This document shows, in pieces, positions 11,900 to 20,885 of a DNA stretch of 30,209 nt (its first letter is position 1; each line of letters begins with the position of its first letter). The position numbers were made by a program, and so were the translations under genes. Where the stretch lies: NCBI GenBank assembly GCA_964424365.1, contig CAYRJF010000001.1:1-30209 (forward strand), given 5' to 3'. The notes below the pieces were generated by a model. That model searched no databases, was not told where the DNA came from, and saw nothing but the letters and a program-made list of their open reading frames with translations. This DNA is from an uncultured Gammaproteobacteria bacterium. GTDB taxonomy: Bacteria > Patescibacteriota > Patescibacteriia > Patescibacteriales > JAGXOH01.

Positions 11900-12664
11900 A
11901 TGTATGTTTATATCTATGACGGTATTGTTAATAAAAGAAAAAATCGGAAAACTTTAATAAAAATTGAAAAAAAAATTACTGATCTGGGATTAAACGGAAA
12001 AATCGTTCGCTTAGAAGGGATAAAAGACACTGAATCAATTATAAAAAACGAGGTTAGATATCAAGCCAAAACAATCGTGGCCGTGGGGAACGACAGCACC
12101 TTAAACACTGTGATAAATGCCGTTTTAAAACAAAATTTAACCGCCTCCTCTCGGGAATTGCCTGTAATCGCCCTAATTCCACTAGAAGCTTCTAACAATT
12201 TAATTTCCGCCTCATTAGGAATTCAATCTCCGGAAGCGGGTTGTGAGGCCTTGTTATCCAGACGCCTAAAAAATATTAATATAGCTCAAGCAAATCAGGA
12301 ATATTTTTTAACCCAGGCGGAAATCTTGGGTAATTATACTAAGATTCAAATTGAGAAAGATTATTCTATAGAAATAAAAAGGGGTGGAGAAATAAACATC
12401 ATCAACCTGCCTTTAAAAAAAGAGTGGGGTGATTTTTTAAAAATTGAATCTGGAAAAAAGATTCTGAAGCTCTTAATACGCCCTCCCAAAACCACCCGAG
12501 CCAGTTTAATTTCCGAAAGTATTTTTTCTTTAAATAAGCTAACAGTCACTAAAGAAACTAAAAAAATAATTATCGACAACTGTAAAGAAATTGCCGCCCC
12601 GGCAACTATTAAAACCACTGATAAATTTTTGAATTTAATAGTTGGTAAAAATCGTTATTTTTAA
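11900..12664 (+). CDS. Diacylglycerol-kinase-family-like protein with a degenerate catalytic motif
   Basis: TIVAVGNDSTLNTVINA (canonical GGDGT), ALIP....NN...SLGI. Confidence 0.6.
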   Translation: MYVYIYDGIVNKRKNRKTLIKIEKKITDLGLNGKIVRLEGIKDTESIIKNEVRYQAKTIVAVGNDSTLNTVINAVLKQNLTASSRELPVIALIPLEASNNLISASLGIQSPEAGCEALLSRRLKNINIAQANQEYFLTQAEILGNYTKIQIEKDYSIEIKRGGEINIINLPLKKEWGDFLKIESGKKILKLLIRPPKTTRASLISESIFSLNKLTVTKETKKIIIDNCKEIAAPATIKTTDKFLNLIVGKNRYF

Positions 12665-13320
12665 CTCTTGTTCTGGACTGGCTCAGCAACAACCACCAAC
12701 CTCTGCTTTTCAGAAAAAACAGGATGGCAGGTAAATAAGGTTAGTTTTTCTTCTTCAGAGGGTTTTAAAATGCTTAAGTCCTCAGCTTCCACCAAAAAAC
12801 TTCTTTTAACCTGATAAACATATTTTTCCTCTTGATAATAAACCATTATCCGATCTCCTGGTTCTAGTTTATCCAGGAAATAAAAAGTCAGGTTGTGGGG
12901 TGGTAAATATTTAAACCTGTGAGCAGTTATAATAGTATTTCCCCGCCTACCGGGACGGCTTCCTTGTGGCAATAACCAAGCCCCTTGGGAAAGCCCTGTG
13001 GCAGAATTTTGGCTTTCTGAGAGGGGAGTGTTGACATTGATCAAGGGTATAATTATCCTATTTTTTACTTTTAAGCTTTGCCCTAAAACACCCTGTTTGT
13101 TTGTCTGTTCAAGACTCAAAGGATCGTCCTGTCCTTGAAAAATATTGTCAATTTTTTGAACTGATCTTTGGTGCCTGAATAATTGCAAATAAGACTTTAA
13201 CTTAGGATAAACCGGTAAAAAAACCAGGTATAAAATTACCAATAAACCGCCCAAAATCAAAATTTGGGAAAAAGATTTTAAAATTAAATCTTTGGCTTCC
13301 TTTTTTTTAAGCTCGCGCAT
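12661..13320 (-). CDS. Sortase (class E/D-like)
   Basis: N-terminal TM; IIIPLINV, G..PG..GNTIITAHR, L.PGD.I, LTLFTCHP, QRLVVVA; His-Cys-Arg triad intact. Confidence 0.93.
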   Translation of the reverse strand: MRELKKKEAKDLILKSFSQILILGGLLVILYLVFLPVYPKLKSYLQLFRHQRSVQKIDNIFQGQDDPLSLEQTNKQGVLGQSLKVKNRIIIPLINVNTPLSESQNSATGLSQGAWLLPQGSRPGRRGNTIITAHRFKYLPPHNLTFYFLDKLEPGDRIMVYYQEEKYVYQVKRSFLVEAEDLSILKPSEEEKLTLFTCHPVFSEKQRLVVVAEPVQNKS

Positions 13321-16141
13321 AGACCTTAATACCTAAAGAGCCTCCGAAAAGAAAAAGTGATAATATTAACAAAAAGGAGAGCTCTTTATCGTTAAATCCC
13401 GAAGGCGCTAATTTTACGCCCTTGACTTCTACTTCACGGACTTCTAAGGGAGTTTTAGCGGTAATTGTTTTATGATTTTTTGCGGTTGCTTGAGAAAGAT
13501 TATGATAAATCCCTTCTTTTACTTCTTCTCCGATAACGACGGAATATTTAATTTCCTCCTCTTCTCCCGGAGACAAGTCACCCAGGCTCCAATTATAGGT
13601 ATCTTCTTGACTGGATTTATAAAAAAATCCTTGGGGCAATTTATCAATTAAAACCACCCCTAAAGCCTCGGATGCCCCTTCGTTTATAACTCTAACTGTA
13701 TAATCAACGATGTCTCCCGGGTTGGCAAATGAAACACTAACCGTCTTGGAAATTCCTAAAATCGGATCTAAGTCTTCAGGTGTTGAGGTGGGAGTAGCCG
13801 GATCTTTTGACGATTCTTCCGGTGTACCGGTTGCCCCTCTGCCCGCTTGAAAAATCCAAACAGGAGTTCCGCCGGTCCCTCCTGAGCCCCCTCTGCTTTC
13901 TTCTTTTTGACAATTTGAGCTACATCCGTCTCCGGAATTTGTATTTCCATCGTCGCATTCCTCGCCGGCTTCTACCAAACTATTCCCACAGATTGGTTTT
14001 TTTTCATTTCCTCCCCCGTTGCCGGGTTCTTGAAAGTGGTTGTTAAACTCTGCCAGGGCTTCTTTTCCAGAAACCACTTCTACCTCCTGCTCACCCGAAC
14101 CAGGGGTAATTGCCTCCCAATTTTCCCTTGCGGTTTCTTTTAGTAAATATTTTCCCGGACTTAGATCGGTAACTAAAGCCTCTCCGTTTGTTGTCTTTAC
14201 CTGAGTACTGCTACCGGATCCGAATTGAGGAATAATTTCAAACTCCCAATTTAAAGAAGCAGACAGGGCTCGATCATCTTTTGTCGAATCTTGACCGTCT
14301 TGGTCTTCATATTTTTTAATCCTTAAAGACCCCAACGGCTCTCCTTCATAATAATTTACAAAATCCCAGCCGTCTTTAATTTCACCAACACTTAAACTAA
14401 CCGCTTCCTCCGGACCCTCAAGCATCGTCCAATTAAGCGGTAAAGACTCCAGAAGTAAATAATTACCCGCTCTTAAATCGGAAAACTCATAATAACCGGA
14501 GGAGTCGGTGGTGGTTGTGGCCACAATTTCTCCGGGGCTATCTTCAGAATATAAATTTATTTGCCAAGGGTTTTTAGCTAAATATCTGTCTGCGCTTGTA
14601 GTAGCTAAACCGTCTTGATCAATGTATTTTTGACCTGACAAACTGGCGGTTCGATAATTTATAAATTTCATTTTTTGCTTTTCTCCTGTTTTTAAGGAAG
14701 TGGTGGCTTCTCCATTTTTAGGGCTTAAAACAGTCCAACCCGACAATATTTCCTCTCTGATTTTATAATCTCCTTCCTCTAGTTCTGTAAAAGAAAGGCA
14801 ATATTCTCCGGGTTTAGTGCTTAAGGTTTTAGTGCTTGTGGAAATATCGGTTCTATCCAAATCAAAGCTCCAGACATTACCCGTGGCCTCGGTCCGGTCT
14901 AAAGTGGTAGAGGGTAAACCGTCAAAATCCTCATATTTACAAACCTCAATACTGCCTCCTAGGGCCAGTTGGTGATTTCCAAAAATTTTTCCTTCAAGGT
15001 TTTCTTCCCAGGCTAAATTAATTTCATAATTATTTGTTTCCGGAAATGTTTGTTCCCAGTCCGGAATTGTTTTTTCCTTTATTGTATAAGAACCGGCGGG
15101 TAGGCCGGAAAACTTATAACACCCCAAACTATCGGTGGTTTGTGTAGCAATTAAGGAACTATTTTCCAAAACAATCTCCCAGCCCTCAATAAATGGCTCT
15201 TCAGTATCTTTGTTGCCGTTTTGATTTAAATCATTAAATTTACACCCGGAAATTGAGCCGTATTGGCATAATCTGGTGGATATTTGGCTATAAATACTTT
15301 CTAAATCATCTGAAGTGGGGGAGTAATAATATTCTGCCTGAGTTTCCCCTGCAATTTGTTTTAACATATTTTCATTAATATCTCCATTGCTTCCCAGGCC
15401 TATAGTAAACACCTTAATTCCGGCTAAAGCCGCCTCTGAGGCTTTTTCTAAAGCATATTGAACATCTCTGGGGTCTTCCCCGGAACCGCTTCCCTGGGGC
15501 TTGTTTGCCTTTCCATCTGTTAAAAGAATAACCACTTTATTGGCCTGGGGGTTGGCTCGGGAAGAGCTTAGCTCTTCTCGAGCTAAAGCAATTGCATCTC
15601 CAATATTGGTAGGGCCTTCTGCTTCTAAACCATCTAGTGAATTCTTGGTGGAATTATGACTAAAAGAAAGTTCTTTTTCCAGCTTGGCCAGCCAATCACC
15701 CTCTTTTTCATAAGAAAAATATACCAACCCGGACTGATCTTTGTTCCCCAGCAAATTTAAAAACTTACCTGCGGCGGCCTTAGCGGCAGTAATTTTATTT
15801 TCTCTGCTCGGCGTATATTCTGCCGGTCTATGTTCAGCATCTTTTTCTCTACACCACTCTTCAGTTACATTAGTCTCTTGATACTGAACCCACTGCTTAG
15901 AAGGTCCCTTCCATTCCAATTGATACCAAACACAAAGACTGTCTCTTCCTCCATCCTCCATACTCCCGGAGCGATCCAGGGCCAAAACCACATCTATCTC
16001 CGCCTCACAAAGACCTGATTCCTGGGCTCTAACCTGATTTAGCTTATAAGCACTCCAAACGCTTAAAAACAAAATTAAACTGATTGTTAAGAAAAACCTT
16101 AAATTAAAATAATTTAAATTTTTAAACTTTAGTTTTTTCAT
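13307..16141 (-). CDS. Large surface adhesin: signal peptide, vWA, 4 SdrD-B/Cna-B-like repeats, Myxococcus Cys-rich repeat, DUF11, LAPSG sorting motif and TM
   Basis: MIDAS DRSGS ... GPTNIGDA ... LLTDG; repeats GSI.GCKFNDLNQNG / GSI..CKYEDFDG / ASL.GQKYIDQDG / GSL..KKYEDQDG; CGNS.VEAGEECDDGN..SGDGCSSNC; GISKTV...ANPGD.VDYTVRV.N.G. Confidence 0.88.
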   Translation of the reverse strand: MKKLKFKNLNYFNLRFFLTISLILFLSVWSAYKLNQVRAQESGLCEAEIDVVLALDRSGSMEDGGRDSLCVWYQLEWKGPSKQWVQYQETNVTEEWCREKDAEHRPAEYTPSRENKITAAKAAAGKFLNLLGNKDQSGLVYFSYEKEGDWLAKLEKELSFSHNSTKNSLDGLEAEGPTNIGDAIALAREELSSSRANPQANKVVILLTDGKANKPQGSGSGEDPRDVQYALEKASEAALAGIKVFTIGLGSNGDINENMLKQIAGETQAEYYYSPTSDDLESIYSQISTRLCQYGSISGCKFNDLNQNGNKDTEEPFIEGWEIVLENSSLIATQTTDSLGCYKFSGLPAGSYTIKEKTIPDWEQTFPETNNYEINLAWEENLEGKIFGNHQLALGGSIEVCKYEDFDGLPSTTLDRTEATGNVWSFDLDRTDISTSTKTLSTKPGEYCLSFTELEEGDYKIREEILSGWTVLSPKNGEATTSLKTGEKQKMKFINYRTASLSGQKYIDQDGLATTSADRYLAKNPWQINLYSEDSPGEIVATTTTDSSGYYEFSDLRAGNYLLLESLPLNWTMLEGPEEAVSLSVGEIKDGWDFVNYYEGEPLGSLRIKKYEDQDGQDSTKDDRALSASLNWEFEIIPQFGSGSSTQVKTTNGEALVTDLSPGKYLLKETARENWEAITPGSGEQEVEVVSGKEALAEFNNHFQEPGNGGGNEKKPICGNSLVEAGEECDDGNTNSGDGCSSNCQKEESRGGSGGTGGTPVWIFQAGRGATGTPEESSKDPATPTSTPEDLDPILGISKTVSVSFANPGDIVDYTVRVINEGASEALGVVLIDKLPQGFFYKSSQEDTYNWSLGDLSPGEEEEIKYSVVIGEEVKEGIYHNLSQATAKNHKTITAKTPLEVREVEVKGVKLAPSGFNDKELSFLLILSLFLFGGSLGIKVYARA

Positions 16142-16145
16142 ATTT

Positions 16146-17045
16146 TTAGGTTTGTTTTAAATTTTTTTTATAAAACCAGATAAATGAAGTGGCTATTAAT
16201 AAAACGCCCAAAACTATAAACCAATACCAATACTGGCCCAAAAAAAGGCTCCAAGATTTTTCAGACTCCACCACTGCAAAAGCAAAATTCTCTTTTTTTA
16301 TTTTCTCTCCTTGCAACAAAACCGAAATATCAGCGTGATATTTGCCCAGAGAAGATTGGGGTAGATTATAGAAAAGCTTCACTTCTTCCTGTTCTAAGGG
16401 TATAATCGCTGCTTTACTTTCCGGGTAAGGGTAAATAAAATTGTCTATTATTTTGCCCTCCTTAATAATTTTGACTTGTAAATCCGGTTTTAACAAAATA
16501 TTCCCCTGATTGCGGTACTGGGCTTTAATCTCCAGGGGTTCGCCTTTCATGATTACGTAATTTTTTGGCGAAACCGAAGCGCTTAGTTTTACTATTTCCT
16601 GATCTGTAACCTTGATTACAACCTGCCTGCTGACTCTTTGAGCCACTGAGACAGAAACCTTTTCCGAAGAAGTGTTTTGAGGGTTATATTCCACAACCAA
16701 ACTTCCGCTATATTCACCATTAGGTAAAGTGTCCGGAAGCTTTATTTCCACATCCACCCCTTCTTTACCCTCTCCCTCTATCTCTAGCTCTGTTATTTCA
16801 GACTGATTATAAAAAAACTTTGTCCAGCTTTTTATGTCTCCTTCTGCCAGTAAAGCGAATTTAAGGGTCTTTTGGTTGTTGTTAAAAACCTTTAATTCTT
16901 CCTTTATCATCTGCCCTCTTAGGGCATTGTTAATTTCAACCGGCTTACTCATCAATCCGATTGCTTGAGCCTGGGGAACAAAAAACGCAAAAAACAGAAA
17001 AATTAAGGCAGACAGAGTTGTTTGAATTTTAATTTTTCTAAACAT
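16146..17045 (-). CDS. DUF916/DUF3324-like (WxL-interacting-type) two-Ig protein with C-terminal TM. Start ATG 17045
   Basis: Signal peptide ending AQA; V.I.LPDTLPNGEYSGSLVV; YRNQGNILLKP; G.Y.A.I; TM YWYWFIVLGVLLIATSFIWFY followed by KKNLK. Confidence 0.65.
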   Translation of the reverse strand: MFRKIKIQTTLSALIFLFFAFFVPQAQAIGLMSKPVEINNALRGQMIKEELKVFNNNQKTLKFALLAEGDIKSWTKFFYNQSEITELEIEGEGKEGVDVEIKLPDTLPNGEYSGSLVVEYNPQNTSSEKVSVSVAQRVSRQVVIKVTDQEIVKLSASVSPKNYVIMKGEPLEIKAQYRNQGNILLKPDLQVKIIKEGKIIDNFIYPYPESKAAIIPLEQEEVKLFYNLPQSSLGKYHADISVLLQGEKIKKENFAFAVVESEKSWSLFLGQYWYWFIVLGVLLIATSFIWFYKKNLKQT

Positions 17046-17053
17046 ATTTTTTC

Positions 17054-17094
17054 TATCCAGGGAGGAGAGGGGGAGACCCCCTCTCCTTTGGATA
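17054..17094. other. Strong intercistronic hairpin between the secreted subunit and the DUF916-like gene
   Basis: aggagaggggg-aga-ccccctctcct (11 bp) extended by tatcca/tggata. Confidence 0.75.
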
Positions 17095-17104
17095 ATTAAA
17101 TTAC

Positions 17105-18256
17105 TCAGTTGGAAACACAGACCGGGCAACACTCCCGAAAATTAGCAAACTTAGCGTCCAGAGTCATAGTACCGCTATAAGTTGAATTCTGGTTCGGAAA
17201 TTTAGAAACCAAGATAGAAAAATCTACCTCTTCCACCTCGGATAAATCTAGAATGTCTTCTAGCCACCTGTGTTTTTCCGGATAATAATTTTTCCAATCT
17301 TCTTCGTTATTACCCACCCGAGCATCGTATCTAACATTGTATACAGTGTCTGTGGTTCCAAATCCCATGTCATCCTGGCTTACGCCTAAGTAAAGACGGG
17401 TATTGCCGGTATTTCTAACTGAGGGCTTGTCAGCGGTTCCCCAGGTAGTATCTCCGGAAATTCTTTTATGAGTATTTAGTTTAACATTTCCGTAATCAAC
17501 TCCGGTAAAATCAACTTCATAAGAAGTTAGGGGTAAATACTCAAAGTGATTTTCCGCCTCATTACTAAACACGCCGGCGCTGTCTAAGGCAAAAATCTTT
17601 ACTCTATACATTCCGGCAGGGTCTTCCCAGATTAACTCCTTGTCCGCGCAATAGACATAAGCGGTCTCTTTCATCAACTCCCCATCCACATCACAAATTT
17701 CGTTATAGTTATAATTCTCAAAAAAAGAGGGTAGGTCGTTGTTGTTGTTTCTGATATTGTTGCAAAACAAGTCATAACCATCTGTCTTACTTAGTCTGGT
17801 TAGACGGTTTTCATCACCTCTTTGCTCCCCGCATCCGCTTAAACCATAATCAGGTGACTCACCTGTTCCCCCGTTTATTTGATCCGGGTTAGAGGGGTCT
17901 TCCGGGTGAAAAGCCACTGTTTCCGGATAATAAATATCAGTATAAACTCCATCTATATCAGAAACACCGTCTGGGTCTGTAACTATAGCACAGATGGAAT
18001 AGCTCGTAGTAGATCCCCAAACCCCGGGTGCGTCAAACTGGGCTCCGGAATTACTACTATCATCTTCCCCTGATAATTCGGAATAAAACCCTTTCATTTC
18101 CCATTTAGCTTTAACAATCGGGGCTGTTCCCCCTCCTTCGTCCCTGGTTAAAGTGGTATTGACTCCGGATTGTCCGTAAGCCGGTCCTACTAAACCCATA
18201 GAGAAAAGCATTGTAATTAGAGCGATCATTCCGCTCCAACGTTTTATCTTTTTCAT
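17105..18256 (-). CDS. Secreted Ig-like protein without a membrane or LPxTG anchor; WxL/TasA-like C-terminal domain; terminal CCPVC
   Basis: Signal peptide ending AYG; IVTDPDG..DI, G.YRVKIFALDSAG, VDYGNV, VRNTGN, YSGTMTLDA; 8 Cys. Confidence 0.7.
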   Translation of the reverse strand: MKKIKRWSGMIALITMLFSMGLVGPAYGQSGVNTTLTRDEGGGTAPIVKAKWEMKGFYSELSGEDDSSNSGAQFDAPGVWGSTTSYSICAIVTDPDGVSDIDGVYTDIYYPETVAFHPEDPSNPDQINGGTGESPDYGLSGCGEQRGDENRLTRLSKTDGYDLFCNNIRNNNNDLPSFFENYNYNEICDVDGELMKETAYVYCADKELIWEDPAGMYRVKIFALDSAGVFSNEAENHFEYLPLTSYEVDFTGVDYGNVKLNTHKRISGDTTWGTADKPSVRNTGNTRLYLGVSQDDMGFGTTDTVYNVRYDARVGNNEEDWKNYYPEKHRWLEDILDLSEVEEVDFSILVSKFPNQNSTYSGTMTLDAKFANFRECCPVCVSN

Positions 18257-18408
18257 ATTTTTTAGTTTTAGTAATTCTTTTGATTAGCTTCCCTCCTGCG
18301 CGAGCTAATCAATTAAGAATTTCTAAAAATCTTTTATTTGTTAATATTAATTTTTTACCAGACCCCCGGCTAAGCACCGGCTTTAGGCCTGGGCCGACCT
18401 TTAATTAA

Positions 18409-18451
18409 AAACGCCCCTGTAAGCTAAAGCAAAGCTTTTACAGAGGCGTTT
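18409..18451 (-). terminator. Intrinsic terminator-like hairpin downstream of the Com-like gene
   Basis: Minus RNA AAACGCCUCUGUA...UACAGGGGCGUUU (13 bp including one G-U), then UUAAUU. Confidence 0.7.
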
Positions 18452-18492
18452 AAATTTCTAATAACTTAGAATGTTTATGCCTGTTATAAAAA

Positions 18493-18705
18493 TTATTTTA
18501 TTTCTTCTTTTTTAAGTTTGTTTTCCTCCACCTCGGATCGGCATCGAAAAATTAGTTCTCCGTTTTCAGATATTAAAATATTAACTGACTTGCATTTGGG
18601 ACATTTTTTTTCTAAATGAACTCCGTCCCTAAATTTATAAATATTAAGCAAGTGGTTTGAACACCGGGCGCACCGCCAAATAAATTGACCGGGGTAATTA
18701 TTCAT
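18493..18705 (-). CDS. Small zinc-ribbon protein, Mu-like Com family
   Basis: RCARCSNHLL-x13-KKCPKCKSVN matches the Com pattern RCxxCxxLL...KCPxCxxxN. Confidence 0.7.
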   Translation of the reverse strand: MNNYPGQFIWRCARCSNHLLNIYKFRDGVHLEKKCPKCKSVNILISENGELIFRCRSEVEENKLKKEEIK

Positions 18706-18734
18706 AATAATTTTCAGAGGACCGCACTTTTAAT

Positions 18735-18810
18735 AAAAAAACCGGAAAAACAAATTAAGAAAATTTGACCCTAAATAATAGGGTTGTCTTTCTAATCCGT
18801 TTCCGGTTTT
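18735..18810 (-). terminator. Long imperfect hairpin plus U-tract in the leader of the Com-like gene (attenuator-like)
   Basis: AAAACCGGAAA / UUUCCGGUUUU outer stem, ACCCUA-UUAUU-UAGGGU apex, U7 about 30 nt before the ATG. Confidence 0.6.
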
Positions 18811-18909
18811 CATCCCCTCCTAAAATTAAGTTTTTAAAATTTAGAAATGTTTCCTTTTCACTCAAGCTGTTTTTCAAACCTTAAACACAAACATTTTAAA
18901 GACAAGAAA

Positions 18910-18937
18910 ATCTTACCAGTTAAGTTTTTTTTGTCAA
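18910..18937 (-). promoter_or_regulatory. Candidate promoter of the Com-like/surface locus
   Basis: TTGACA (18937-18932), 16 bp, TGgTAAGAT extended -10 (18915-18910). Confidence 0.6.
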
Positions 18938-19046
18938 TGTTTTTTTGTTTGGTTTTTTCTGGCCCTTGACTTTTTGAAATAAAAACTTAAAATTTTAAAA
19001 GTGTCCGGTGTCCCGCCTCTCACTCTTTACTGTTTTTTTAACCAAC

Positions 19047-19081
19047 AAAAAAATCAGCCACTTCTAAAAAAGGCTGATTTT
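19047..19081 (-). terminator. Intrinsic terminator of tRNA-Asp
   Basis: aaaatcagcc-N12-ggctgatttt 10-bp stem followed by a U-run on the minus strand. Confidence 0.75.
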
Positions 19082-19095
19082 ATTGGGTTTAAGTG

Positions 19096-19169
19096 CGGAG
19101 CGGACGGGGCTCGAACCCGCGACCTCATGCGTGACAGGCATGCGTTCTAACCATCTGAACTACCGCTCC
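19096..19169 (-). tRNA. tRNA-Asp(GTC), CCA not encoded
   Basis: Acceptor GGAGCGG/CCGCTCC, G73, anticodon arm CATGC-CTGTCAC-GCATG, T loop TTCGAGC. Confidence 0.96.
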
Positions 19170-19234
19170 AAAAAAATAAAAACGACACCGGATCGTTTTT
19201 CTCTGCTTACGCGAGACTTATTAAAACTAAATCA

Positions 19235-19263
19235 ATAATATCAAAAAGAAATTTCCTAGTCAA
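19235..19263 (-). promoter_or_regulatory. Promoter of tRNA-Asp
   Basis: TTGACT (19263-19258), 17 bp, TATTAT (19240-19235). Confidence 0.6.
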
Positions 19264-19273
19264 CTGTTTTTGC

Positions 19274-19304
19274 TTTTCCACAATTTAACCACAACTTATA
19301 AACA
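19274..19304 (+). promoter_or_regulatory. Three tandem DnaA boxes upstream of dnaA (oriC part 1 / dnaA autoregulation)
   Basis: TTTTCCACA 19274, TTAACCACA 19285, TTATAAACA 19296; exact 11-bp spacing. Confidence 0.75.
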
Positions 19305-19334
19305 AATCCGGGGTTTTTACTTTTTTTGTTTAGT

Positions 19335-19343
19335 TGTTATAAT
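19335..19343 (+). promoter_or_regulatory. Extended -10 of the dnaA promoter
   Basis: TGtTATAAT. Confidence 0.6.
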
Positions 19344-19508
19344 GTTTTTATTAAAATAAAATTTCAAAAACCATTCTTTTTCCCGGTCCCTGTGTTTCTT
19401 TTTTTTATTTAGCGGTTATTAATTTTAAAAAATACATGATCGCTAAAAAATATTCCCCCCATCGACATAGGGTTGGTAGACTATATTTAAATATTAAAAT
19501 TTAAGGCT

Positions 19509-20885
19509 ATGGATAATAATCAAATCTGGCAAGCTGTTTTAGGTGAAATTGAGCTAAACCTTTCTAAGGCAAATTTTACCACCTGGTTTAAAAACACCTT
19601 TATTCTCTCCCAAGAAAATGGAGAGGTAATAATCTGTGTTCCCAACACCTTCACTAAAACCTGGTTGGAAAAAAAATATCACAGCGAGATTTTAAAGGCC
19701 TTAAAAAATGTTTTAGGGGAAGAAGTAAAAAATATTTATTACAAAGTTCAAACCAAAAAACAAGAAGAAAAAAAAGAAGAGAAAATTAAAGTCAGATCCG
19801 GCTCCTCAAAAACCGACCCAAGTGAGTCCGTAGAAACCAAACCCCAAAACAAACCCTCTTGCAACCGCTTCGGACTTAATCCCAAATATGTTTTTGAAAC
19901 TTTTGTGGTTGGAAAAGGGAATGAGCTCGCCCACGCCGCCACCAAGGCGGTTGCCGCCAACCTGGGCAGGGCCTATAACCCCTTGTTTATTTATGGAGGA
20001 GTGGGGCTGGGAAAAACACACCTTCTTCAGGCGGCGGGCAATGAAGTTTCTAAAAACAGTCGTGTTTTATATACAACCAGTGAAAAATTTACCAATGATT
20101 ACGTACAAGCAGTCCATAGTGGAAAAGCCAAAGATTTTAAAGACTACTATAGAAACGTAGATATGCTTTTAATTGACGATGTTCAGTTTATGGCCGGAAA
20201 AGACGGAACCCAAGAAGAGTTTTTTCACACCTTTAATGAGTTACAGCAAGCGGACAAACAAATTATTATAACCTCTGACAAGCCCCCGAAATCAATCCCC
20301 GCCCTGGAAAAACGGCTTTTGTCTCGTTTTGAGTCGGGAATGGTGGCGGATGTTTCTAAGCCGGACACTGAAACCAAAATCGCGATTTTAGAAGAAAAAG
20401 CTAAAGAAAAAACCTATTCCCTGGAAAGAGAAATTTTAGAATATATCGCCAACAATATCAACAACAACATCCGAGAACTGGAAGGCGCTTTAAATAAAAT
20501 TATTGCTTTTCATGAATTTAACAATTCTACTCCCTCCTTAAAAACCACTAAAAACATATTAAATGATCTGCTGTGTAATCTTCAAGCCAAGAGTGTTTCA
20601 ATTAAAGATATTGTTTCCGCGGTTTGTAGTTTTTATAGTATCAGCAGTAAAGATTTAACCGGAAAAGGGAGGAGAAAAGAATTGGTTTGGCCCAGACAAA
20701 TAGCTATTTTTTTAATGAGAGAGGAGGTTGACGCCTCCTACCCCACAATCGGAAGTGAGTTGGGGGGAAGGGATCACACCACAGCCATGCACGCTTACAA
20801 TAAAATTCTAGAAGAAATAAAAGAAAAAGAAAACGAAAAAATCAAACAAGAAATCGAGTCAATTAAACAACTCCTAAGTTCTTAG
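19509..20885 (+). CDS. dnaA: Chromosomal replication initiator DnaA
   Basis: W..VL..IE..LS..NF.TWF; LNPKYVFETFVVG; YNPLFIYGGVGLGKTHLL; LLIDDVQF; RELEGAL; domain IV PRQIAIFL..GGRDHTTAMHA. Confidence 0.99.
   Translation: MDNNQIWQAVLGEIELNLSKANFTTWFKNTFILSQENGEVIICVPNTFTKTWLEKKYHSEILKALKNVLGEEVKNIYYKVQTKKQEEKKEEKIKVRSGSSKTDPSESVETKPQNKPSCNRFGLNPKYVFETFVVGKGNELAHAATKAVAANLGRAYNPLFIYGGVGLGKTHLLQAAGNEVSKNSRVLYTTSEKFTNDYVQAVHSGKAKDFKDYYRNVDMLLIDDVQFMAGKDGTQEEFFHTFNELQQADKQIIITSDKPPKSIPALEKRLLSRFESGMVADVSKPDTETKIAILEEKAKEKTYSLEREILEYIANNINNNIRELEGALNKIIAFHEFNNSTPSLKTTKNILNDLLCNLQAKSVSIKDIVSAVCSFYSISSKDLTGKGRRKELVWPRQIAIFLMREEVDASYPTIGSELGGRDHTTAMHAYNKILEEIKEKENEKIKQEIESIKQLLSS

Follow-up and report, generated by a model that had tools for sequence, protein, structure and literature searches.

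A conserved zinc-ribbon gene and RNA element at the head of surface-protein operons in Patescibacteria, with a possible role in transcriptional read-through

In RAT RNAs, an antiterminator hairpin that overlaps the 5' arm of a terminator wins only when its protein is bound, and RfaH-ops, LoaP, and the EAR RNA act as read-through devices in the leaders of long envelope, polysaccharide, and pilus operons. Other proteins, such as TRAP and PyrR, promote termination. ANTAR regulators, including EutV, AmiR, and NasR, act by stabilizing small hairpins whose formation precludes that of a terminator (PMC3369931, PMC8934654), and the Com protein of phage Mu recognizes CC(N)2-3GAG in a hexaloop located beside a structure that hides a start codon (PMC6483171). 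Here, we compare these systems with a locus on the minus strand of a 30,209-nucleotide stretch of contig CAYRJF010000001.1, the whole of which is referred to as the window. A first-pass annotation, made from the letters of this DNA, had listed a promoter, a leader hairpin with U7, a 70-amino-acid CxxC...CxxC gene, a second terminator, and a structured spacer at the head of a surface operon. All of these features were borne out in place and are better than expected by chance, and the position of the gene between two terminator-like hairpins recurs in many related loci. We further identified a conserved RNA element, R1, that includes the second hairpin and accompanies the gene. Judged from sequence comparison, the pair would work like a RAT- or ANTAR-type switch and looks a little like Com, and neither the protein nor the RNA falls into a Pfam or Rfam family. 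We give roughly an even chance to the reading that the protein binds R1 RNA and thereby controls read-through into the surface operon.

The open reading frame (ORF) at 18493-18705 (minus strand) comprises 70 codons for MNNYPGQFIWRCARCSNHLLNIYKFRDGVHLEKKCPKCKSVNILISENGELIFRCRSEVEENKLKKEEIK, which starts MNNYPGQFIWRCARCSNH...KKCPKCKS..., and is conserved in relatives. Since a word-indexed homologue search with the protein gave no match, exhaustive HMMER was required, which returned 14 proteins from 1.84 billion cluster representatives, four of them with E <= 1e-10. Five relatives were found among 60 related genomes, and a six-frame search detected the gene, in one copy each, in 20 of the 316 genomes of the host's order, spread across many families. 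Further loci came from species-representative genomes (30) and Joint Genome Institute (JGI) metagenomes (42), bringing the collection to ~70 loci overall, and 2.9 million viral contigs contained no relative. This pattern of conservation indicates that the ORF is a real gene and that it belongs to a rare single-copy family that appears confined to Patescibacteria. The family signature reads IWRCAKCSNHFANI-x-K-x2-G-x4-EKKCPKCKS-x-N, with C12, C15, C35, and C38 invariant; it is usually followed by I-x-I-x-C and then by an acidic/aromatic tail (...FDP..NGY...YPYP), which is shorter and diverged in the window copy. AlphaFold models a zinc ribbon plus a beta-hairpin (mean predicted local distance difference test score, pLDDT, 77) and a charged tail of low confidence. 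The protein is basic around the zinc site and has no signal peptide; here and below, signal-peptide calls are N-terminal sequences read by eye, without a predictor. Sequence searches of Pfam, NCBIfam, and PDB gave only sub-threshold matches to generic zinc ribbons, Foldseek against PDB and BFVD gave no match with E < 0.2 (weak generic zinc ribbons, LysW first), and neither the protein nor its relatives matched CAT/PRD, ANTAR, HutP, or NusG-like antiterminator domains in Pfam or NCBIfam. One relative of 279 amino acids (P0013) carries the zinc ribbon at its C-terminus, behind a long helical and charged N-terminal part, and the zinc-ribbon module can therefore be fused to another domain.

The 236-nt spacer downstream of the gene (18257-18492) folds far better than shuffled sequence (z = -6.0), and the RNA element R1 occupies its first part (18405-18485, minus strand), as delimited by a covariance model built from 17 copies and by comparison of the copies. 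All spacers open with GG(C/U)AU, 4 nt, the helix P1, AU-N, AACGCC, the long and variable hairpin P2, and GGCGUUUU. In the window, these parts are GGCAU at 18477-18481, P1 at 18456-18471, AACGCC at 18445-18450, P2 at 18410-18450, and the U tract at 18407-18411; the second hairpin as a whole (18409-18451) reaches -23.5 kcal/mol (z = -5.3) and is followed by U5. Among 48 distinct copies, GG(C/U)AU and AACGCC/GGCGUUUU are near-invariant. P1, a 4-bp helix that usually reads GUUU...AAAC, covaries at three of its pairs (UA 44/CG 4; UA 44/CG 4; UA 39/AU 3/CG 3/GC 1), and upper P2 covaries with up to six pair types. The covariation score was unmatched in 500 shuffles, and slid controls scored far lower. 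A scan of 18100-19550 against Rfam passed only tRNA-Asp, with nothing else better than E 0.36, and a GEMM (c-di-GMP) riboswitch, which had been suggested for 18274-18400, gave no match at E <= 5 in a permissive Rfam scan.

R1 is strictly linked to the zinc-ribbon gene. The model recovered it in 20 of the 316 genomes of the order, and all 20 protein-bearing genomes have R1 beside the gene. Among the further loci, 28 of the 30 from species representatives and 36 of the 42 from metagenomes have R1 immediately 3' of the gene on the same strand; four additional copies, which contain long insertions or are truncated at contig ends, were recognized by eye. Protein-less genomes contained one weak match. 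A match of the model in genome G246 was rejected, as it looks like an ordinary terminator. One locus (L104, Ga0180438_10137804) has no R1 in the 420 nt that follow its stop codon, where the sequence looks unlike other spacers and could be an insertion. All genomes but one have a single R1 copy. The exception, G061, holds the only orphan among the 316 genomes (L071, G061:C86:10979-11057, minus strand), which has no adjacent zinc-ribbon gene and is located ~90 nt upstream of a gene for a 707-amino-acid fused polysaccharide-deacetylase/GT2 protein, that is, a surface function. This orphan hints that R1 may work as a leader away from the gene and that the protein may act in trans. We also considered whether GGCAT could be the -24 box of a sigma-54 promoter, or another promoter before R1, and rejected this, as the spacing is inconsistent between loci.

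A terminator placed before surface genes could equally serve as the expression platform of a small-molecule riboswitch, or R1 could be an independent small RNA, with the protein being unrelated, e.g., a cofactor for the assembly of surface structures. Zinc ribbons also mediate protein-protein contacts, and the top fold match, LysW, is a carrier protein. We regard this explanation as very improbable. With just a 4-bp helix plus an internal loop, the sensing part would offer little room for a ligand pocket, and nothing would explain why R1 and the protein are present one-to-one across 316 genomes. Moreover, the protein lacks a signal peptide and has a basic zinc-site environment.

What R1 could do is suggested by its competing folds. 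If the 3' arm of P2 is left out and the 5' segment folded alone, one shape is common to 45 of 46 copies, consisting of a GGC:GCC pairing, a 6x6 internal loop with the strands AUNNAC and AUNAAC (6 + 6 nt), and P1. The GCC of AACGCC is shared by the 5' GGC and by the 3' GGC at the base of P2 and, having one GCC for two partners, the 5' fold and the terminator P2 are mutually exclusive. This competition also explains why the stem of the terminator is free to drift except at its base, which does not vary; the sole change is at the C of GGC, where C to U keeps the pairing with G. The 5' fold amounts to ~-1 to -10 kcal/mol, compared to ~-23 kcal/mol for P2. Taken together, the layout is that of an antiterminator and a terminator, as in protein-dependent antitermination switches. 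As in the targets of BglG, SacY, and LicT, the 5' arm of the terminator overlaps a weak, conserved hairpin interrupted by internal loops; the resemblance between the two strands of the internal loop would be in keeping with a dimer. In contrast to these systems, the protein has no CAT/PRD domains, the RNA sequence is another one, and the regulator gene precedes R1 on one and the same transcript. R1 likewise resembles ANTAR targets in being a small hairpin mutually exclusive with a terminator, whereas it lacks the dual hexaloop motif and its presumed partner is a single zinc ribbon rather than an ANTAR protein. As with RfaH-ops, LoaP, and EAR, a dedicated read-through device would precede a long operon for surface structures; however, those systems employ NusG paralogues or a large RNA, and there is no sequence resemblance to them here. 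The first-pass annotation had proposed that the operon is gated by antitermination at the RNA level. The conserved layout of the element fits such regulated read-through, while the binding of the protein and the direction of its effect are what we infer from it.

The same linkage and structural data also apply to a protein working in the opposite sense, which would bind R1 to favor termination, or to destabilize or autoregulate its own mRNA, and would thus keep the surface operon off, with TRAP and PyrR as general precedents. However, P2 by itself greatly exceeds the alternative fold in stability and termination would need no help, and a conserved weak structure over the 5' arm is the usual signature of an antiterminator that is stabilized by a protein. 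A negative regulator is therefore distinctly unlikely in our view.

The region between P2 and the first surface gene contains a second conserved feature. In the window, the motif AAAGGUCGG (18394-18402, minus strand; family consensus WAAAGGUCGR) is followed by a hairpin at 18358-18392, recognized by its fold energy. Of 45 loci, 40 carry one to three copies of WAAAGGUCGR between P2 and the first surface gene, counted up to 700 nt past the stop codon, compared to a genome background for AAAGGUCGR of 0.026 per kb per strand. Its orientation is strictly one-stranded, and the 45 nt that follow it fold better than shuffled sequence (mean -7.5 vs -4.6 kcal/mol), with visible hairpins of unrelated sequence. 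Possible roles include a second binding site, a nut-like site, a processing site with a stabilizing hairpin, and a special promoter. A general genome motif was considered as well and rejected, as the source genome contains AAAGGTCGR at about chance frequency and the copies elsewhere are scattered over unrelated places. As a promoter box for sigma-70, sigma-54, sigma-28, or an extracytoplasmic function (ECF) sigma factor, the motif was set aside for want of a conserved partner in the aligned flanks, and this use of it is no more than conceivable.

These observations bear on an explanation at the level of DNA, in which the zinc-ribbon protein is a transcription factor, or the partner of an alternative sigma factor, acting at AAAGGTCGR as an independent promoter or operator, and R1 is simply the conserved 3' end of the regulator's transcript. 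The frequency of the motif, far above background, and its occasional repetition, as is common for operators, are in line with this explanation, as are the name that NCBI gives to Com relatives ('DNA-binding transcriptional regulator') and the three ECF-like sigma genes of the genome; moreover, an ordinary terminator is common after a regulator gene. We nevertheless judge it unlikely. There is no conserved partner box 16-20 nt to either side of the motif, and its one-stranded orientation and the hairpins of unrelated sequence behind it point to RNA. A plain terminator would also leave unexplained the invariant GGCAU, the covarying P1, and the fixed 6+6 spacing, and it does not account for the orphan R1 in a leader. 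The first-pass annotation had found no convincing sigma70 promoter between the second terminator and the ATG at 18256, which our consensus scan corroborates: no sigma-70-like site was detected on the minus strand from the ORF to this ATG, and ~15 kb of pooled spacers after the zinc-ribbon gene held only a few weak promoter matches. These scans favor a cassette whose surface genes would be read through from the upstream promoter, although an unusual promoter remains conceivable.

The first-pass annotation had called the protein Com-like, a label that is weakly supported. Remote similarity does exist. An hhalign comparison with an alignment of true Com proteins yields a probability of 92.4% over 30 columns, covering R-C-x2-C...E-x-K-C-P-x-C-K, and phrog_6417 ('translational regulator') matches 10 of 13 family members (best E 3e-7), with phrog_13819 (gpCom) matching 3 of 13. 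By contrast, the Pfam model of the family, PF10122 (Zn_ribbon_Com; gathering score 22.9 bits), stayed below threshold everywhere. It gave no match to the 70-amino-acid protein at E <= 1 and matched 4 of 13 family members with a best E of 0.045, generic zinc-ribbon families of Pfam scoring higher; in a six-frame scan of 19 carrier genomes its cut-off was never reached, the zinc-ribbon genes scoring 10-12 bits in three genomes. Com was also absent among the top 50 Foldseek matches listed for PDB and BFVD. There are parallels to Mu Com/mom in the size of the protein (~60-70 amino acids), its N-terminal CCCC zinc module and non-globular C-terminal tail (PMC6483171), and in a gene located directly upstream of the gene or genes to be controlled via an RNA hairpin. 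Unlike Com, the zinc-ribbon family has an extra beta-hairpin with a fifth conserved cysteine, its conserved RNA ends in a terminator and leaves the start codon uncovered, and it has no phage context: the neighbors are dnaA, dnaN, a tRNA gene, and surface genes. Together with the absence of the family from viral contigs, this leaves the earlier suggestion of a domesticated phage protein without support. The zinc-ribbon protein may be distantly related to Com and is of similar general build, and these matches do not place it in the Com family.

The similarity to Com is one reason to consider Com-style translational activation, in which the protein would bind a leader hairpin and free the start of the first structural gene, the hairpins serving mainly for mRNA stability. 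The leader is indeed structured, with the motif and its hairpin and with a last hairpin (18270-18324, minus strand; -19.1 kcal/mol, z = -4.4) that carries GCAGGAGGGA in its loop and lies ~35 nt before the ATG at 18256. Moreover, in two loci (L097 and L100) a second copy of the motif, AAAGGUCU, stands 8-10 nt before the start codon. However, in the leaders inspected no hairpin covers the start codon, and the start regions of the structural genes are A-rich and look unstructured. The Com target, CC(N)2-3GAG in a hexaloop, was not seen in the element or spacer of the window when these were compared by eye, not by a pattern scan, with the published site (PMC6483171). In addition, conservation is strongest in RNA that is 150-900 nt away from the start and has a U tract at its end. 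Shine-Dalgarno sites are rare in the genome, a 5-mer being present at -20 to -4 in ~5% of ORFs of at least 200 amino acids; for the same reason, we rejected the lack of such a site as a sign of translational control. We consider this explanation quite improbable, and translational activation at the start of the structural genes, which the first-pass annotation had offered as an option, thus gains no specific support. In a genome so poor in Shine-Dalgarno sequences, two sites are unusual and may have another role, namely AGGAGG at 18815-18820 and GCAGGAGGGA in the loop of the last hairpin, near 18295.

Upstream of the gene, the cassette contains a sigma-70-type promoter and the first hairpin. 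The putative promoter (18910-18937, minus strand) reads TTGACA-16-TG-TAAGAT, with 10 of 12 consensus matches and a TG extension, and in many loci the homologous genes are preceded, at a distance of 180-275 nt, by clear TTGAC[AGT] sites, several of which have a TGn-TAnnnT -10 box. T1 (18735-18811, minus strand) is a long and imperfect terminator-like hairpin with U7 (-30.1 kcal/mol, z = -5.6 against dinucleotide shuffles), and a comparable hairpin and U run precede the gene by 15-60 nt in most related loci. A simple terminator scan flagged neither T1 nor P2, whose loops and bulges exceed its rules, and their status as terminators therefore rests on fold energy, U tract, and conservation.

T1 is spanned in its entirety by a 27-codon upstream ORF, MKTGNGLERQPYYLGSNFLNLFFRFFY (18730-18813, minus strand), which has AGGAGG before its start and a stop codon just past the U tract. 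In 17 of 20 loci, an ATG-initiated ORF (13-46 codons) has its end at or within the first hairpin, compared to 5.0 expected from shuffled leaders (ORFs of at least 12 codons, loci with a recognizable promoter), and in one family of loci the peptides keep the N-terminal MNxFxI and the frame despite many substitutions. The related leaders in question are from loci L074-L132. These data suggest ribosome-dependent leader-peptide attenuation of the zinc-ribbon gene, which we treat as a lead only, because the loci are related and the control is a mononucleotide shuffle. As in the trp and pheA leaders, a short ORF lies between promoter and hairpin, and the position of the ribosome would decide on termination. 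Unlike there, no regulatory codon run is obvious, and the association with T1, which so far includes no alternative 2:3 pairing, is only statistical.

The zinc-ribbon gene heads surface-protein/sortase operons in every related locus. Co-occurrence with such operons had been named by the first-pass annotation as a test of its proposal, and it holds wherever downstream sequence is available: the gene is followed by a spacer of 160-1000 nt and by genes with N-terminal, signal-like hydrophobic segments. In the window, domain and homologue searches delimit an operon of four genes on the minus strand (12661-18256). The first encodes a 383-amino-acid secreted protein (17105-18256), which begins with a hydrophobic signal-like segment and matches no Pfam family, and the second a 328-amino-acid protein (16146-17132) with such a segment and a C-terminal membrane anchor. 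They are followed by a 944-amino-acid adhesin (13307-16141) with VWA, SdrD-B, SpaA, and DUF11 domains, whose C-terminus presents a KLAPSG sorting-like signal, a hydrophobic segment, and a basic tail, and by a sortase (12661-13320; domain search). The first gene is a homologue of the 383-amino-acid protein (46-49% identical) in 8 of 17 loci, and homologues of the 328-amino-acid protein, adhesin, and sortase follow in several of these. Other loci have different secreted proteins, or proteins with N-terminal FSDTETSxGNTFTAG next to a small membrane protein, which we take to be of the TasA/SipW type and a signal peptidase, respectively.

In the reading we prefer, transcription would start at the promoter (18937-18910) and first pass T1, where translation of the upstream ORF would melt the hairpin. 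The zinc-ribbon mRNA would be made next, and transcription would stop by default at P2 (18410-18450). The 5' part of R1 may fold into the weak alternative hairpin, consisting of GGC:GCC, the 6x6 loop, and P1, which uses the terminator's GCC, and the protein would bind this antiterminator hairpin as the RNA emerges and make it stable enough for RNA polymerase to continue through the AAAGGUCGR-hairpin leader into the operon for surface proteins, adhesin, and sortase. Because the regulated terminator comes only after the zinc-ribbon gene, the gene's own expression cannot be increased by read-through, and the positive feedback suggested by the first-pass annotation is unlikely. Several observations weigh against this mechanism. 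The GGC:GCC pairing comprises only 3 bp and is invariant, so that covariation cannot prove it. Pfam and fold searches point to no specific RNA-binding family, and the similarity to Com is short and driven by cysteines. The near-universal AAAGGUCGR has no role in the model and could be the true site of the protein or a special promoter. Finally, the gene and R1 are adjacent, and their co-occurrence could reflect mere physical linkage, the single orphan being the argument for action in trans.

The source genome of the window measures ~0.9 Mb in 135 contigs. Relatives of the locus carry the labels Candidatus Parcubacteria, Falkowbacteria, Kuenenbacteria, and Buchananbacteria, and the host is therefore a member of the Patescibacteria (candidate phyla radiation, CPR). 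Several records of metagenome-assembled genomes with the locus (L073, L074, L076, L080, and others) are titled 'uncultured Gammaproteobacteria bacterium', and the locus is clearly of the Patescibacteria type; the title looks like a placeholder or a wrong label. Upstream of the cassette are a tRNA-Asp gene (19095-19169) with its own terminator-like hairpin and, in divergent orientation, dnaA and dnaN. The genome encodes one sigma-70-family protein of RpoD size and three small, ECF-like ones (187-202 amino acids), the four genes being located on contigs C29, C36, C62, and C70.

Our literature searches found no description of such a protein/RNA pair, and a recent study of the Pam pilus, which deals with CPR classes other than this one, makes no mention of a regulator of this kind (PMC13278184). 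The locus is probably an undescribed on/off control of surface genes rather than a true copy of Mu Com. More tentatively, and with less confidence than in read-through control itself, it may be a two-checkpoint riboregulatory cassette of Patescibacteria, in which a leader-peptide attenuator gates the synthesis of a novel type of RNA-binding zinc-ribbon antiterminator and this protein clamps the GGCAU-P1-AACGCC hairpin, with its quasi-symmetric internal loop, to override the terminator. Together with a nut-like AAAGGUCGR-hairpin, such a cassette may license long operons for surface fibers, adhesins, or exopolysaccharides, and it may represent one branch of a wider, so far unrecognized class of Com-like zinc-ribbon antiterminators. 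The pair is compact and conserved, and in vitro assays or reporters in E. coli or B. subtilis would suffice to study it, with no need for the uncultured host.

Patescibacteria, which are ultra-small bacteria, account for much of bacterial diversity and live attached to other cells. To our knowledge, almost nothing is known about how their attachment fibers and adhesins are regulated. If the proposed mechanism is true, the small set of RNA-binding antiterminators would gain a new protein family, and there would be a handle on when Patescibacteria deploy their surface structures.

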